Shown here piece after piece: positions 6,678 through 47,164 of a DNA stretch of 64,000 nt. The notes under the pieces were generated by a model, which saw only the letters and a list, made by a program, of their open reading frames with translations, was not told the origin of the DNA and searched no databases. Location: IMG/VR virus record IMGVR_UViG_3300031949_001696; one strand, 5' to 3'. Position 1 is the stretch's first letter; every line of letters begins with the position of its first letter. This DNA comes from a virus (Duplodnaviria > Caudoviricetes). Position numbers and translations under genes: made by a program.

Positions 6678-7265
6678 TCACGGATAGTGTCCCTCGATCC
6701 GTACTAGTTCGTTCGCGAAGATCCGCTCGCCGATGCAGTTGTCGCAGACAGGACTCGCGGGGGCCGTCGGCGCATTCTTCACGAAGCGGTACAAGGCGCA
6801 GTCGTAGCCGGACGATCCGTAGTGGCCCTTCACGAGCCACTCGCCGACCGTGATCGACGGTGGCTGTTCGTGCCGGTTCGGGGCGCTCTCAAATTTCTTG
6901 GCCGTCTCTTCGGTGGCTTGAAAGACCGAAGCAGTGCAGTCGGCACCCTGCGTTCGCGTCTCGAAGGGAACGACGGCACGGTGCCGATTGCCGCACCAGG
7001 CGCAGACGACGGGGCGCGGAAACTGCGGTGATACGCCGATGAGGTCGTCGACGGCGACGCCAATGCGCTCGCGTACGGCCTCGAACGTCGCGTCGACCGC
7101 GTTCCACTTGAGTGGTAGTGGAGGCACGCTGTCGCGCAGGTCGCCGGCAATCTCGCTCGCCCCGTCGCCCAGGCGCTGGATCTCCTCCAGCAGCCGATGG
7201 TGCTGGGGCTCCGTCAGTTTCGATCCGTCGATCATCACGAGGTAGATCATGATCAATCCGATCAT
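6678..7265 (-). CDS. hypothetical Cys-rich protein
   Basis: CAWC and VCDNC motifs; coupled to neighbours. Confidence 0.6.
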   Translation of the reverse strand: MIGLIMIYLVMIDGSKLTEPQHHRLLEEIQRLGDGASEIAGDLRDSVPPLPLKWNAVDATFEAVRERIGVAVDDLIGVSPQFPRPVVCAWCGNRHRAVVPFETRTQGADCTASVFQATEETAKKFESAPNRHEQPPSITVGEWLVKGHYGSSGYDCALYRFVKNAPTAPASPVCDNCIGERIFANELVRIEGHYP

Positions 7266-7615
7266 GCGTCGCGGAGGGTGCGCACGAGCGCGGTCGCGAA
7301 CTCCGTGGCGAGAAGCGAGTCGTCGGCGAGCACGAGTTTGCCGAGCGCGTCGCCGCATAGCTTCTCGATCCGCTCTCGGATGGGACCGGGGGCTCGAACT
7401 TGTTCGAACACGACCTCGCGCGCGACCTGCTGGATCGCGTCGTTGAACGCGTCTCGTAGCGGACTCGTGCGCGCGCCGTAGACGCCGTGACCCGAGGGTT
7501 TCTCTTCCAAGAGCGCGGCGATCGCGTTCTTGATCAGGTGCTCGCGCTTCTGGTCATCGAGCGACTTGTACATCGCCTCGATCACGCGCGCCTTCATCGC
7601 GGTGTCGTCCGTCAT
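7262..7615 (-). CDS. hypothetical protein
   Basis: Codon pattern and coupling. Confidence 0.6.
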   Translation of the reverse strand: MTDDTAMKARVIEAMYKSLDDQKREHLIKNAIAALLEEKPSGHGVYGARTSPLRDAFNDAIQQVAREVVFEQVRAPGPIRERIEKLCGDALGKLVLADDSLLATEFATALVRTLRDA

Positions 7616-8470
7616 TACAGAAGCCTCCGAAATTCCGTCGTGGTGTGAATCCAGCCATCGTCGCATTCGATTTGCACGACGATCGCGTTGTCATCGCCGA
7701 TTCCGACGGTGACGATCCGGCCGATCAGCTTCCGTGTTTCATCGTGCAACGGCCCCTGTTTCTCGACGAGGGCCTCGACGCGTGTACCGATCAGCTCGGT
7801 GACGACGCGCGGACGGATGGAGCTGTCTCCAGTCATACAGCCTCCTTGCTGCCGCGCGCGATCGCGTCGGCCGTGGGCATGGGATCGTCGAGGTAGCCGC
7901 TGCCGTCGCAGCGCGCAGGGGGCAACGACGCGATCCACCAGCAGCTCTTCTCCTTCGAGTCTGGCGGCTCGAAGCAAAAGCCGATCCGGCGGTGCTCGTA
8001 CACCAGCTCGACGTGGGTCTCCCCGCCGGCCAGCGTGGTGTAGTGGAGATCGAGGAGCTTCACGGGGCTTCCTCGGTGTTGAAGTCGAAGCCGTGCAGCT
8101 CCGCGAACGTGTCGTCCCAGAAGCGCGTGACGATCTCGTGGGGCGTCGGTTTCTTGGTCGTCGTTAACCGGATGCCGATACCGTCGAGCTCGCGCACGGT
8201 GTGCCAGCGCCAGAACGTGCGCGTCGCACCGTCACGAGAGACACGGAATTTGACGGCCCAGGTGCCGGGATTGTTCGTGGCTTGGTCCTGGTGGGGTTTC
8301 ACGTCGACGATTCTGACGGTGATCATGTGCTCTTCTCCTTGTGCGCTCCGCGCTCCTCTCGTTTTCAGTTGGCGCATCGGTGCTCCTGACATTCTTGGGA
8401 ACTCGCGAAGTACGTCAGGCACGTCTGGCAGACGCGACGGTCGAAGCATGCTTATCCGGTTGTCGCCCAA

Positions 8471-8833
8471 TCACTTGGCAACCCGTCGATCAATAACCAC
8501 GGTCGCACCGCAGCGCTGGCAGTAGTTCTCACCGTCGCGCACGCTGCATTCGCCGCGCTCCTGGCACGACTTGAAGCACCCGCGCACGAAACCTTGAAGG
8601 AAGGCCAGATTGAGGCGCTTGCACTCCTCCTTGTATCTAGCCCAGTCGCTCTGCATTCCTACGACGGAGCCCCACGGTCCACGGAGCACAGGGCCGCCGG
8701 TCATCGACTGCTCACCGACGTCGAATGCCTCCATCTCGATTCGCTCAAGCTTTCGTTCGCCGCTCAAGACGAGATGCACGACTGCGTTGTTCCATTCGGT
8801 CTCGATGGCCGGCTTTGTGTGGTTATCGGTCAC
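8471..8833 (-). CDS. cassette passenger, hypothetical protein
   Basis: Preceded by CCCAAGGAG; lower-GC codons; stop abuts the terminal repeat. Confidence 0.65.
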   Translation of the reverse strand: MTDNHTKPAIETEWNNAVVHLVLSGERKLERIEMEAFDVGEQSMTGGPVLRGPWGSVVGMQSDWARYKEECKRLNLAFLQGFVRGCFKSCQERGECSVRDGENYCQRCGATVVIDRRVAK

Positions 8834-8863
8834 TTGCAAGCTCCTTGGGTTAGCACCCATCGA

Positions 8864-9142
8864 TCATCCCGCCTTACGCCGAAGCGTGAACATTCCAGGT
8901 CTAAGCTGGACGCGCTCATAGTCCGGGTTCAGGTATTCGACGCACTTTCCACCACACGGCGGGCATAGCGTTTCATCCTGCGTTCTGGAGCTGATAAGCT
9001 CATCCGCGTTATACGAGGACGAGTGGAGGTAGCCGAATGTCTGCGTGCAGCAGCAACATTTTCCAACGCCTCCCCACCAGCCACCTTGCGGAAGTTGACT
9101 CCCGCCAATTGGGCGACCATGCGGGCATGCCACGACGCTCAT
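8864..9142 (-). CDS. cassette passenger, Cys-rich hypothetical protein
   Basis: CCCAAGGAG-N4-ATG; lower-GC codons. Confidence 0.6.
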   Translation of the reverse strand: MSVVACPHGRPIGGSQLPQGGWWGGVGKCCCCTQTFGYLHSSSYNADELISSRTQDETLCPPCGGKCVEYLNPDYERVQLRPGMFTLRRKAG

Positions 9143-9235
9143 GCGGCTCCTTGGGTGATAAGCGGAAGTTGACTCCCGCCAATTGGGCGACCATGCGGGC
9201 ATGCCACGACGCTCATGCGGCTCCTTGGGTGATAA
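9088..9235. repeat. exact 74-bp tandem duplication
   Basis: 9088-9161 equals 9162-9235; covers the inner TIR, RBS and gene start. Confidence 0.95.
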
Positions 9236-10187
9236 CCGGACAGTCATGGGTCGAAGCACGCGTTGCACATCTCGAAGCGCACCGTGCCGTCCTTGCGACG
9301 CACGGTCGCGCGTTCGTCAGCCAGGGCGCAGGTGCATGCACATTGTACAGCGCTCATCGATCTGCCCCCTTCGCGGCGGATCGCCGCGCTGCCAGCTCGT
9401 CGAGCGCGCGGACGAGCAGCGTGTCTCCCGACGTCGTCGAAGCGCGCAGGAAGCCCAGCTCGGCGTCGGTGAGGAAGTCCGTGTCCGCGTTCTCCGCGTG
9501 CTGGACGATCTCGGTCTTCGCGGCCTCCGATCGCGGCCGACCGTCGTCCTGGTCGCAGCCGTGCCCGCGATGCCAGTCGCGCCAGTGGCCCACGAACCAT
9601 GGCGGCGTGTGATCGGTGCAGGACTTGGACACCGCTTGCTCCGTCATCGAGGCCCCCTGACCACGGCTGCGTGGTTTTTCGCTCGGTCTTCTCGTCGTCG
9701 TCGCAAAAGATACGCGACGGCGCCGCTGCACGGCGGGCAGAGGTGTCCGTGAGCGTGCTGCGTGCAACCTGACTCCTCGGGCTCGGGCTCCGGTGCCCCG
9801 AAGATCATGCCAACAACAGAGGTGATGGCGGAGTCGACGACATGTTGTCGGCTCATCGAAAATTCGACGACATAGAGGATCTCCGCGCCACAGCCGACGC
9901 ACGCACTCTTGAGGCGTATTCCGTCCGCGTTCACGTCGACGACGGGTTGATCAGTTTTCAGCATGTAGTTGTCATCCGCGGTGCGCCAATTCCTTAGCAG
10001 CCATTACGTGCGTTCAGGATCTCGGCGCAGCGGGCGCGCGCGGCAAGCTTGGACTGCGATGGAAACGGCCGCCGTTCCCCGAGCGCGACTGAGATCGTGG
10101 TGTAGGTCAAGCCATGAAACGGCAACACTCGCCGCAGCTCGCGAAGCTGATCATCGGTGATCGTATCGGCGGTCAGCATTTGATCTC

Positions 10188-10214
10188 CCTTGGGTGTCAA
10201 TCGGATAAGCACGG
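10188..10214 (-). repeat. orphan cassette left end
   Basis: AACTAA|CCGTGCTTATCCGATTGACACCCAAGG, 25/27 identical to 46848-46874 and preceded by the same AACTAA. Confidence 0.8.
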
Positions 10215-10712
10215 TTAGTTCCAATCACTCACCAGCCACCAGGCTGCCTTCTGACCGTCGATCTTGATGCCCATCGCCGCGCAGAATTCGGCGAGCGCGG
10301 CGTCCCAGGCGGGATCCACGGCCAGCGAAGTGATTTCGTTCATGTCGCCACGGTTGCTGATCGTTCGCGACGCCTGCACGGCCACGTAGGGCATTGGGCA
10401 CTCGCCCGAGCAGTGCGTGTCGATCAAGCACGTGGCCTCTTCGACGAGCTTTCGCTTCGCGGCCCAGTACGCCGTGTGCTGGTCGATGATCGCCTGCTCT
10501 TCGGCGCTGTAGTCCGTTGGCGTCGAGTTCCAGCCGTTCTCGCGCGTGGGCGTGACCATGCGTGCGGGGAACGGTGTGCTCGGCGGCAGGCAGCCCTTCG
10601 TGCGGGCGTAGCGTCCCTCCCAGTCGTCGTCGGGATCGATCTCCCACGGGCGTGAGGTCTCGTCGTCCCAGCAGTAGCCGTAGAACAGGATCGCGTCGGT
10701 TGACGTACCCAT
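10215..10712 (-). CDS. hypothetical protein
   Basis: Strong codon pattern; RBS GGAGG before ATG 10712. Confidence 0.75.
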   Translation of the reverse strand: MGTSTDAILFYGYCWDDETSRPWEIDPDDDWEGRYARTKGCLPPSTPFPARMVTPTRENGWNSTPTDYSAEEQAIIDQHTAYWAAKRKLVEEATCLIDTHCSGECPMPYVAVQASRTISNRGDMNEITSLAVDPAWDAALAEFCAAMGIKIDGQKAAWWLVSDWN

Positions 10713-33217: not shown

Positions 33218-35001
33218 GCGGCGAGATCTCTTGCGGGGCGGGTATCGAACTACCCAGTTCCGTCGTGGCGCGAGTCCAGCTACAACGAGGAGACCTGTCA
33301 TAACCGCAGCGCAACTGTTTTTGATGTCCAAGGAGCCCCAATTGAGTGAAGTGTCGACGCAAGAGGAATCAGATCAGCGCGCTCAAGAGGCATGGGCAAC
33401 CGTGCCTGCTGACCTCGAACGACTAGCCGAACAATGTTGCGACGAGTACCACGGCGAGATCGGGACATTTCAAAACTTCTCCGACGATCGCCGTCGCTGG
33501 CGTGAGTTCGCGAAGTTTATTTGGGGACTCGGTGCTCGGCCGCACCTCGAAGGCTAGGCAGGGGTGACTCGATGAGCGCAGATCCCGACGTGCTTGGACA
33601 ACTCGTGCGCGCCACGTTCGCCGATCAGTGGTGGTACTCGCCGCAGATGCCCATCGACGAGGTGCTGATTCGCGCTCGCACGCGGCTTCGGCATGATCAT
33701 GAGGAGAAGTGTAGCGTCGTCGTGGAGAACTTACGTCAGCTGCGCGCCGATCGCGGCTTCACGCTTTCTGAGTCGCGCGCGATCCTCGTCGCCGACGAGG
33801 CACTCGGCGTCTCCTACGACGCCCGCCTATCTTCCGGCCACGTGCTCGGTATCGAGGAGCGCGAGGCGTGGGTAAAGCTCGTCGAGTTAGCACAGGTGCG
33901 CGTCACCGCGCACGCACGTCTAGCCCAGCCCACGAGGCCGATGATCAACGGCCGGGCACACTGCATGATGGGACCGCCAGGTTACCGCTGTTCATGTGGC
34001 ACTACGTTTGATGACTATTACGGCTTGGCAGAACATGTGCGGCGGACGATCGATTGTCCACGCTGCGGCGCGTCACCTGCCGACCTGGGTGACGGCGAGG
34101 GCTGCCGCTGGACGTGCGGTCACTGGATCGCCGCGCGCGATCCATTGGCGACGCTGCGCGGTGGAGACTCGGCGTGATGCGAAAGCTACGCTTGGTCCCG
34201 CGTCCCGCCGTCCTCGAACTCGGCGGCCTCTCCTTGGATCCGGGGTTCTCGGGGAGCGTGACGGCTCTCGCCCCTGGTAAGATGCGCGTGGTCGAGGCCC
34301 GCATCGCGGCCGATTTTCAGCATTCCAGTGTCGGGCAGTGGGTGCGTCGTCGGGTTCCCGGCGCGCGGCGACTCCTCGGCGGCTACGACGCTTACCAGCG
34401 CAAGCACGCGACTGCGCGAGCCCGCATCGATTACGTCTCCGTTGACTCGCAGAGCTGCCTGCCGGACTGCTGCGACGAGCTGCCGATCGCCATCAGAGGA
34501 CGCGAGATCTCGGTGAGCGTGACCAACACCGGAACGCGATCGCTCGTCGCGCGCGTTATCGTCGAGGTGGAGGGACCGTGGTGACTGAGCCGCGGAAACA
34601 AAAATGGGTCCGTGCGAAGTCGATGGGCATCGGCCGGTACGTGCGTTGTCCGTACTGTCCCGATCTCCGCGAGATCGCTCTCAACGAGAGCATGCCCTGG
34701 TGCGCGTCGTGCGGCTGCGAGTACCGCATCACGCCGCTCGGCGCGACGTTCGATCCGGCGCTGAAGACACCACGCTACGCGTGGGGCAAGGCGCTCAACT
34801 TGTCCGGCGGCATGCGGATTGGAAAGGCAAGCAGATCGTGAGCCGGCCCCGTCACCTGACCCGCGCGGAGTTCTGCCGCGATCGCGATCGCGATCGTCCG
34901 ACGCGGCGCCTGCCAGGACGCGGCTGACGAAGGTCGCGCCCTACTACCACCCGAACGTCGATCGGCCGGTGAACGCATCCGGTTAGCGCCCAAGGAGTAA
35001 C

Positions 35002-46600: not shown

Positions 46601-46847
46601 CTGCAAGAAGCTGCTCGCGGCGAATCAGCACGCGTACATCGATCCAGACACGCTCGCGATGGCCAAGTTCATCGTCGACACGCTCGGGGTGGTGTTCCCG
46701 TGCGGCTTCCCTGAGCCTCGCGTCGGAACCGCGCCTGACGGCAGCACGAACGTGATGATCGAGGACATCGTGTTCGGCACGCGTGACGAGGCTCTCGGTA
46801 TCGCCGTAGCGATCATTCGCCATGCTCTTGAGCTACCAGAGAACTAA

Positions 46848-47134
46848 CCATGCTTATCCGGTTGACACCCAAGGACTGCAATGAAGACCAGATGGCAAGA
46901 CGGCAAGCGCTTCACCGTCCATGTTGAAGACTACAACGGGCATCGTTTTGAAGCGGTCGCCCGTGTTGTCGACGCTTTCAAGATCGGCAACGCAATCCGC
47001 GCGCAGTTGGAACTAGAGACTCCGTGCCCGCATGGAAACTGCTTCATCGGACGTGTGCGCGTAATGTCGCGACCCTCGCAGAGAGCGCATCCCATTCGAG
47101 TGCTTCGTAACGGGTGACAAACGGATAGGCACGG
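46848..47134 (+). mobile_element. non-autonomous TIR gene cassette, 287 bp, one passenger gene
   Basis: CCATGCTTATCCGGTTGACACCC...GGGTGACAAACGGATAGGCACGG; AACTAA at 46842-46847 and 47135-47140. Confidence 0.85.
46881..47117 (+). CDS. cassette passenger, hypothetical protein
   Basis: RBS AAGGA comes from the left end; stop TGA lies in the right TIR; lower-GC codons. Confidence 0.7.
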   Translation: MKTRWQDGKRFTVHVEDYNGHRFEAVARVVDAFKIGNAIRAQLELETPCPHGNCFIGRVRVMSRPSQRAHPIRVLRNG

Positions 47135-47164
47135 AACTAACTATCCACGACAAGGAGATCCGAC

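Follow-up and report, generated by a model that had tools for sequence, protein, structure and literature searches.

A two-gene unit interrupts a cysteine-rich gene

We analysed a 64-kb window (the whole stretch of DNA considered here, 64,000 nucleotides) of the IMG/VR virus record IMGVR_UViG_3300031949_001696 and focused on an 804-bp unit with inverted ends (8446–9249) that lies within a cysteine-rich gene. All genes around the unit are on the minus strand. Its termini are inverted copies of each other, with an identity of 19/25 over the outermost 25 nt (repeat analysis and alignment). The gene-distal terminal inverted repeat is found at 8446–8470 (plus strand) and contains a 24-nt core that matches, in an ungapped alignment, the ends of IS1595/ISAcr1-like insertion sequences (ISs). 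The gene-proximal repeat (9221–9249, minus strand) leads into the Shine-Dalgarno (SD) sequence CCCAAGGAG. In a scan with a position weight matrix (PWM), the two ends scored 36.7 and 36.1 bits, respectively, so that the 36–37 bits of this unit compare with a maximum of 8–14 bits in 10 shuffles. The core pattern of the end occurs six times in the window, against 0.96 expected. The unit is bounded on both sides by an exact 6-bp target-site duplication, GTCGAA, with its left copy at 8440–8445 and its right copy at 9250–9255 (sequence and repeat analysis). This flanking direct repeat reaches 13 nt with one mismatch (GGTCGAAGCAYGC, at 8439–8451 and 9249–9261) because GCACGC in the right flank is similar to GCATGC at the tip of the inverted repeat. 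That likeness may be a coincidence, or it may reflect a liking of the transposase for targets that look like its own ends.

Deletion of 8446–9255 in silico fused 9256–9357 to 8365–8445 (minus strand) and restored one 60-codon, cysteine-rich open reading frame (ORF) with four cysteine pairs that ends in ...CQTCLTYFASSQECQEHRCAN*. The 5' part of this interrupted gene is now a 37-aa ORF (9244–9357, minus strand), which takes its TGA stop codon from the cassette end and was called as a 37-aa gene in an ENA contig. The 3' part (FD RRVCQTC...RCAN*; 8365–8445, minus strand), delimited by the in-silico excision, is severed from its start. In a word-seeded search of proteins of 22–70 residues, among 5.8 billion proteins, the 5' half of the split gene matched only itself.

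On the minus strand, the conserved proximal end continues directly into CCCAAGGAG (9221–9229), which is followed 4 nt later by an ATG, cargo gene 1, a spacer with a second CCCAAGGAG, cargo gene 2 and the distal end. Cargo gene 1 (ORF at 8864–9142, minus strand) encodes a cysteine-rich protein of 92 aa with three homologues at 64–76% identity. Cargo gene 2 (ORF at 8471–8860, minus strand) encodes 129 aa if translation begins at the ATG at 8860 and 120 aa if the GTG at 8833 is used, and its stop codon (8471–8473) abuts the distal end. We found 14 homologues of the cargo 2 protein, at 43–100% identity, and their alignment revealed an invariant TGGPVLRGPWG motif and four invariant cysteines; family members P0002–P0015 are found in phage-like contigs. 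The AlphaFold2 model of this protein had a mean predicted local distance difference test score of 87.4, and Foldseek detected no PDB fold match to it at E ≤ 0.001; the protein atlas gave no lead for it either. Elsewhere, the homologues of both cargo genes are ordinary, tightly packed operon genes in phage-like contigs with no such ends nearby, and their neighbours include gp32-like, RecA, DnaB, HNH and lysozyme genes. The genes in the cassette are therefore of phage type. No IS1595 transposase was matched inside 8446–9249 (tblastn), and Pfam assigned no family to either cargo protein. As the unit lacks transposase domains, it is a derivative of an IS rather than an IS proper. Its G+C content is 59.3%, against 64.0% in about 7 kb of flanking sequence. 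A consensus scan identified no promoter-like site in or beside the unit, and terminator-like sites there were at chance level only.

A relic of the end with its SD (GGTGCTAACCCAAGGAGC; 8840–8857, minus strand, repeat family D2) lies just upstream of cargo gene 2. The sequence CCCAAGGAG occurs four times in the 64 kb, against 0.17 expected, and three of these occurrences are within the unit. Judged from the relic between the two cargo genes, this suggests that the unit arose as a fusion of two single-gene cassettes. The unit also contains a perfect 74-nt tandem duplication (9088–9161 and 9162–9235; repeat analysis). Within 9088–9235, the inner part of the end is repeated together with the SD and codons 1–18 of cargo gene 1, and the upstream copy creates a 25-codon ORF (9139–9216) whose stop codon overlaps the ATG of cargo gene 1 (ATGA). 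This duplication is missing from an otherwise identical independent assembly (ENA contig k141_3279761; L145/L158), where the unit measures 730 bp. Logan contigs of the probable source run end at 9117, inside the 74-nt repeat, and restart at 10148. The duplication may be a real polymorphism or a difference between assemblies.

The structure of the locus agrees with the original prediction, made from the sequence alone. It had described an 804-bp unit with imperfect inverted ends between two copies of GTCGAA that holds two passengers of lower G+C content and no transposase, and whose excision reopens a reading frame. Its reading that the end itself supplies the ribosome-binding site (RBS) of the passenger, and that the last passenger stop codon abuts the other end, was likewise confirmed. 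It had missed the 74-nt tandem duplication and the extension of the flanking repeat to 13 nt.

The ends are those of IS1595-family insertion sequences

Next, we focused on where else these ends are found. In a scan of one genome per prokaryote species, the 24-nt end pattern was present in at least 120 bacterial contigs, mostly from Alpha-, Beta-, Gamma- and Deltaproteobacteria. Many of these matches were at contig ends, as is the case for repeated elements. The matches listed included 54 inverted pairs, of which 20 span 1053–1949 bp and 34 span 103–917 bp, the latter being similar to MITEs (miniature inverted-repeat transposable elements) or MICs (mobile insertion cassettes). Many of the short bacterial units among the listed matches are MITEs of 100–400 bp. 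The longest open frames in the 20 long pairs listed range from 223 to 463 codons (246–463 codons in 18 pairs, and 223 and 243 codons in the other two). Identical 6-bp flanks, with an A+T content of 75%, border 44 of the 54 listed pairs: 16 of the 20 full-length ones and 28 of the 34 short ones.

The original prediction had proposed looking for a copy that encloses a transposase, and such copies exist in bacteria. Two of the scanned elements, L042 and L026, encode a protein with the PF12762 DDE_Tnp_IS1595 domain (E = 7.6e-30 and 7.8e-36, respectively) and the PF12760 Zn_ribbon_IS1595 domain. Relatives of the L042 protein on RefSeq plasmids (50–60% identity) are annotated as 'IS1595-like element ISAcr1 family transposase', and the ISAcr1 copy on plasmid pACRY03 of Acidiphilium cryptum has ends that read CCTTGCCTATCCGGTTG...CCCA on both sides. 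The cassette ends could be aligned with those of L042, L026 and ISAcr1 without gaps, with 11 invariant and four nearly invariant positions among the first 24 columns. The ends also fit what we take to be the ISfinder consensus of the ISSod11 subgroup (nnnGcnTATC), which serves as a lead only. Members of the IS1595 family have a single transposase with the Zn_ribbon_IS1595 and DDE_Tnp_IS1595 domains, and usually generate target-site duplications of 8 bp (PMC8101967).

Because the ends match those of a known IS, the idea of a candidate new gene-cassette system, with which the original prediction began, has to be abandoned: the unit is a real transposase-less cassette of a known kind and not a new mobile system. 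The prediction had also left the enzyme as either a DDE transposase or a tyrosine recombinase. The former is supported by IS1595 copies that encode a transposase and share both the ends and the 6-bp length of the duplication, and a tyrosine recombinase received no support.

Two full-length bacterial elements with the same ends, L066:2149–3564 (1416 bp) and L084:3714–5106 (1393 bp), contain an extra ORF of 86–87 aa upstream of the transposase. A 917-bp bacterial unit without a transposase (L044:904–1820) contains a 236-aa ORF that resembles a HAD-type phosphatase by eye.

Sister cassettes in the window and in other contigs

A scan with a profile of the end, as suggested by the original prediction, uncovered a family. 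It comprises further copies in the window (46848–47134 and the end at 10188–10214) and cassettes with their own 6-bp duplications in other phage-like contigs. A second complete cassette of 287 bp (46848–47134, plus strand; pattern and PWM scans) is flanked by AACTAA on both sides (46842–47140 including the duplications) and contains one cargo gene of 78 aa (46881–47117), the stop codon of which is within the distal end. The left AACTAA copy contains the stop codon of the upstream gene, and the cassette lies ahead of the RBS of the next gene. A protein with 97% identity to the 78-aa cargo is found elsewhere. Moreover, the stretch 46872–47133 recurs with its distal end retained, at 95.4% identity over 262 bp, in two independent metagenome contigs (L160:115–376 and L161:203–464). 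The flanks of these copies are unrelated to the window and their proximal end is mostly deleted, with about 11 nt left. They are decaying cassettes. As this cassette recurs in a different context, units of cargo plus end do travel. A tblastx high-scoring segment pair upstream of the L160 copy was judged spurious, as its frame agrees with neither neighbouring gene.

A third, decayed cassette (9960–10220, minus strand) contains a cargo gene of 61 aa (9994–10179). Its proximal end (10188–10214) is intact and is flanked by AACTAA, and its distal end has eroded to about ATCCG...CCAA (approximately 9966–9990), followed by AACTAC, and falls below the threshold of the PWM scan. A fourth cassette (L158:14173–14487, 315 bp) is located about 2.5 kb before the start of the window on the same contig and contains a cysteine-rich cargo of 85 aa with the SD sequence CAAGGAGG. 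This genome thus has at least four cassettes. Pattern scans further identified a relic of the inner end and SD (CATCCGGTTAGCGCCCAAGGAG; 34969–34997, plus strand) upstream of a 288-aa ORF; this relic has lost its outermost 8 nt, and the search for a partner end gave none.

Pattern scans of IMG/VR and JGI metagenomes revealed further inverted pairs of 227–785 bp in large, G+C-rich contigs, which brings the size range of the cassettes to 227–804 bp. Eleven distinct cassettes in phage-like contigs, the two complete copies in the window included, each have their own perfect 6-bp duplication. In the PWM scan, real ends reached 30–44 bits, and shuffled sequence gave no more than 14 bits. A tblastx comparison among 19 cassettes detected no shared cargo, so all cargoes differ. 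Pfam identified no family in the four cargo proteins of the window, and among ten sister-cassette cargoes it found one MT-A70 methyltransferase, two sub-threshold matches and otherwise nothing.

The 111-kb JGI metagenome contig L153 has a 6-kb stretch (L153:4052–9813) with three single-gene cassettes of 308, 265 and 288 bp, each with its own perfect 6-bp duplication (AGCGAA, GTGACT and CTGCGA, respectively). In the JGI metagenome contig L154 (194–822), a family proximal end with SD heads a gene for a 197-aa MT-A70 N6-adenine methyltransferase (Pfam E = 4.9e-28), and no distal end was detected for this gene.

The Shine-Dalgarno sequence is built into the end

The continuation of the proximal end into an SD sequence is general in this family. 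An alignment showed that 10 of 12 gene-proximal ends have the conserved CCCA followed by AGGAG (CCCA|AGGAG), with a start codon 4–10 nt further on. At the distal ends, such an SD extension after CCCA was present in one of 11 (L001, CCCAAGGAAG), and the others diverge right after CCCA. The distal ends often hold the stop codon of the cargo. In all cassettes examined, the cargo ORFs fill the units exactly, from the SD to the distal end. Some autonomous IS copies (L042) already read CCCAAGGAC at both ends, which means that the SD is a small adaptation of the IS end.

Origin and mobility of the unit

The genome that carries the unit is likely phage-like. A 268-kb contig from an ENA assembly of a soil metagenome matches the window, which has about 120 genes that are small and for the most part unknown; one gene encodes a VapE/D5-type primase-helicase domain. 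Ten long window ORFs had no match in PHROGs; these had been picked regardless of codon bias and are probably in wrong frames. Neither an IS1595 transposase in the 64-kb window (tblastn) nor any transposase, recombinase or integrase family in twenty long window ORFs (Pfam) was found. There was no IS1595 transposase remnant in 13 cassettes (tblastn), and no PF12762 match in five IMG/VR records with a cassette, two of which are 100% complete (188 and 127 kb). An autonomous copy was thus found neither in the window nor in these five records.

Together, these observations make it very probable that the unit at 8446–9249 is a non-autonomous derivative, i.e., a MIC, of an ISAcr1-like IS1595-family insertion sequence, presumably moved in trans by copies in the host. 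As there is no transposase inside the unit, it would have to be moved in trans. Three results bear on such trans-mobilisation: the perfect duplications at 11 cassettes, the sister cassette in two contexts, and the complete phage records that contain a cassette and no transposase. In the mechanism that we propose, a host-encoded DDE transposase (Zn-ribbon and DDE_Tnp_IS1595) from full-length IS copies would bind both ends, and the cassette would be inserted by staggered 6-bp cleavage, either in the course of infection or in a previous host or phage. Expression of the cargo would then rely on read-through from the phage operon. A liking of this IS lineage for A/T-rich hexamers would steer cassettes to the junctions between stop codons and RBSs in G+C-rich phages, as seen at 46842–47140, and such an A/T-rich target may explain the position of that cassette, precisely on a stop codon and before the next RBS. 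The copy at 8446–9249 would have landed inside a gene instead of at a junction, and its two-gene form would be the product of the cassette fusion suggested above.

Several observations weigh against this reading. No empty site for the unit was found in the collections searched, as sequenced relatives of this genome are lacking, nor did these collections contain the two-gene unit a second time. The lineage makes duplications of 6 bp, compared with the family norm of 8 bp (PMC8101967), although 6 bp is also the length at those copies that combine these ends with a transposase. The fourth cassette (L158:14173–14487) does not have a clean duplication, with TACCAA on one side and ATCAAA on the other. 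No source of transposase was identified, the 268-kb contig having been read in part. The two ends of the unit have diverged (19/25), so that it is possibly no longer mobile. Finally, these results offer no explanation for how cargo enters between the ends.

The flanking genes of the unit had no relatives in IMG/VR, the stretch 7800–10000 had no megablast match among 50,697 GenBank phages, and an exact 30-mer of the window had no match in IMG/VR. When the contigs of four public runs were compared with 7000–10500, none joined across the unit. Contigs cannot reveal rare variants, so the lack of a joining contig says nothing against mobility. A 151-nt contig of one 2025 freshwater run, identical to the window, spans the left junction (8337–8487), which means that the insertion is present there too.

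The best-surviving alternative, although we consider it improbable, is decay in situ: a MITE or a full ISAcr1-like IS inserted here, its interior was later replaced by phage genes via illegitimate recombination, and the two-gene unit itself never moved. A single known copy, cargo genes with plain phage-operon homologues, a relic end between these genes and ends that have diverged to 19/25 are all what this scenario would leave behind. Against it, none of 13 cassettes retains a remnant of a transposase, their cargo ORFs throughout fill the units exactly from the SD to the distal end, and the sister cassette at 46848–47134 has 95%-identical copies in other surroundings.

It is less probable still that the cassettes form a dedicated system that is new and uses a recombinase of its own, in which the likeness to IS ends is convergent or ancestral. 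Such a system would agree with the uniform, promoterless, SD-first design of the cassettes and with their recurrence in large phage-like contigs without an IS1595 transposase. Against it stands the ungapped 24-nt match to the ends of transposase-bearing IS1595 elements, which also make duplications of equal length, and none of the cassettes is linked to a candidate recombinase. The twenty scanned window ORFs contained no transposase or recombinase family (Pfam). That the repeats are not mobile at all but regulatory, start-associated sequences, with genes gained by recombination at the 13-nt GGTCGAAGCAYGC, has a negligible probability, as the direct repeat longer than 6 nt at this unit and the constant position of the proximal end just upstream of a start codon are outweighed by 11 cassettes with exact 6-bp duplications of unrelated sequence, by distal ends that are inverted and placed after stop codons, and by the same ends bounding transposase genes and MITEs in bacteria.

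The MIC reading has a wider form, which we put forward tentatively and regard as rather doubtful: the units could be a phage-adapted lineage of IS1595-derived single-gene cassettes, with host transposases shuffling accessory genes among large environmental phages. Compatibility with phage operons may in this case come from the SD in the proximal end, the stop codons in the distal end and the A/T-rich 6-bp target that steers insertion to stop/RBS junctions. The genomes of virulent-type phages are considered to have few insertion sequences or derivatives of these. In our searches of the literature, which were aimed at phage-borne MICs or MITEs with passengers, we came across no account of single-gene cassettes in phages that derive from IS1595 and bear an SD. 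Little is understood of the way in which large phages acquire their numerous small accessory genes, and the locus bears on this question: it is a gene disruption caught in the act, and one of a set of units that deliver ready-to-translate small genes into phage operons. The cassettes thus point to a concrete route for accessory genes, namely host transposases acting on phage-borne cassettes.

Comparison with known systems

The closest relatives of the cassettes are the ISAcr1-like ISs, which share the 24-nt inverted-repeat core ((C)CWTGCYTATCCGGTTG..CCCA), the 6-bp duplication and the A/T-rich target. These ISs measure 1.05–1.2 kb and encode a transposase, whereas the unit described here measures 804 bp and contains two unrelated cargo genes and no transposase. 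Unlike in these ISs, its inner proximal end reads as a full SD. In 2009, Siguier et al. reportedly described IS1595-family elements with passenger genes as 'transporter IS'. These belong to the same family and have passengers inside their ends (as do L066 and L084), but they keep the transposase that the unit at 8446–9249 lacks.

Integron cassettes are also promoterless single-gene units that are expressed from outside and can be stacked, with one attC site, the tyrosine recombinase IntI and no target duplication. We rejected this identity, as the unit shows a 6-bp duplication and a pair of inverted ends, there is no attC, and Pfam identified no integrase in the twenty scanned window ORFs. Two inverted ends with a 6-bp duplication are the mark of a DDE transposase and not of IntI.

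The mycobacteriophage mobile elements MPME1 and MPME2 (PMC3029335) are likewise small, interrupt phage genes, and have short inverted ends and no recognisable transposase. The MPME1 copies in mycobacteriophages Hope and BPs measure 439 bp and are identical in sequence, and insertion of an MPME adds 6 bp, the origin of which is unknown, beside the left inverted repeat (IR-L) (PMC3029335). Unlike MPMEs, the cassettes contain a different cargo in each copy, vary from 227 to 804 bp, and have true 6-bp direct repeats and IS1595 ends. We rejected an identity with MPMEs on the basis of these sizes, the unrelated cargoes and the 6-bp direct repeats on both sides.

The first MIC to be described was the Bacillus cereus cassette MIC231 (Chen et al. 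1999, cited in PMC6542083), and MICs rely on an active transposase (PMC6542083). They have IS-type inverted ends around passenger genes that are unrelated to transposition, and no transposase; the unit at 8446–9249 has all of these features and is a MIC by this definition. The parent of MIC231 is IS231 of the IS4 family, and the parent here is of the IS1595 family. The cassettes further differ from MIC231 in that they are found in large phage-like genomes from environmental metagenomes and contain one or two tiny promoterless genes, with the SD supplied by the end.

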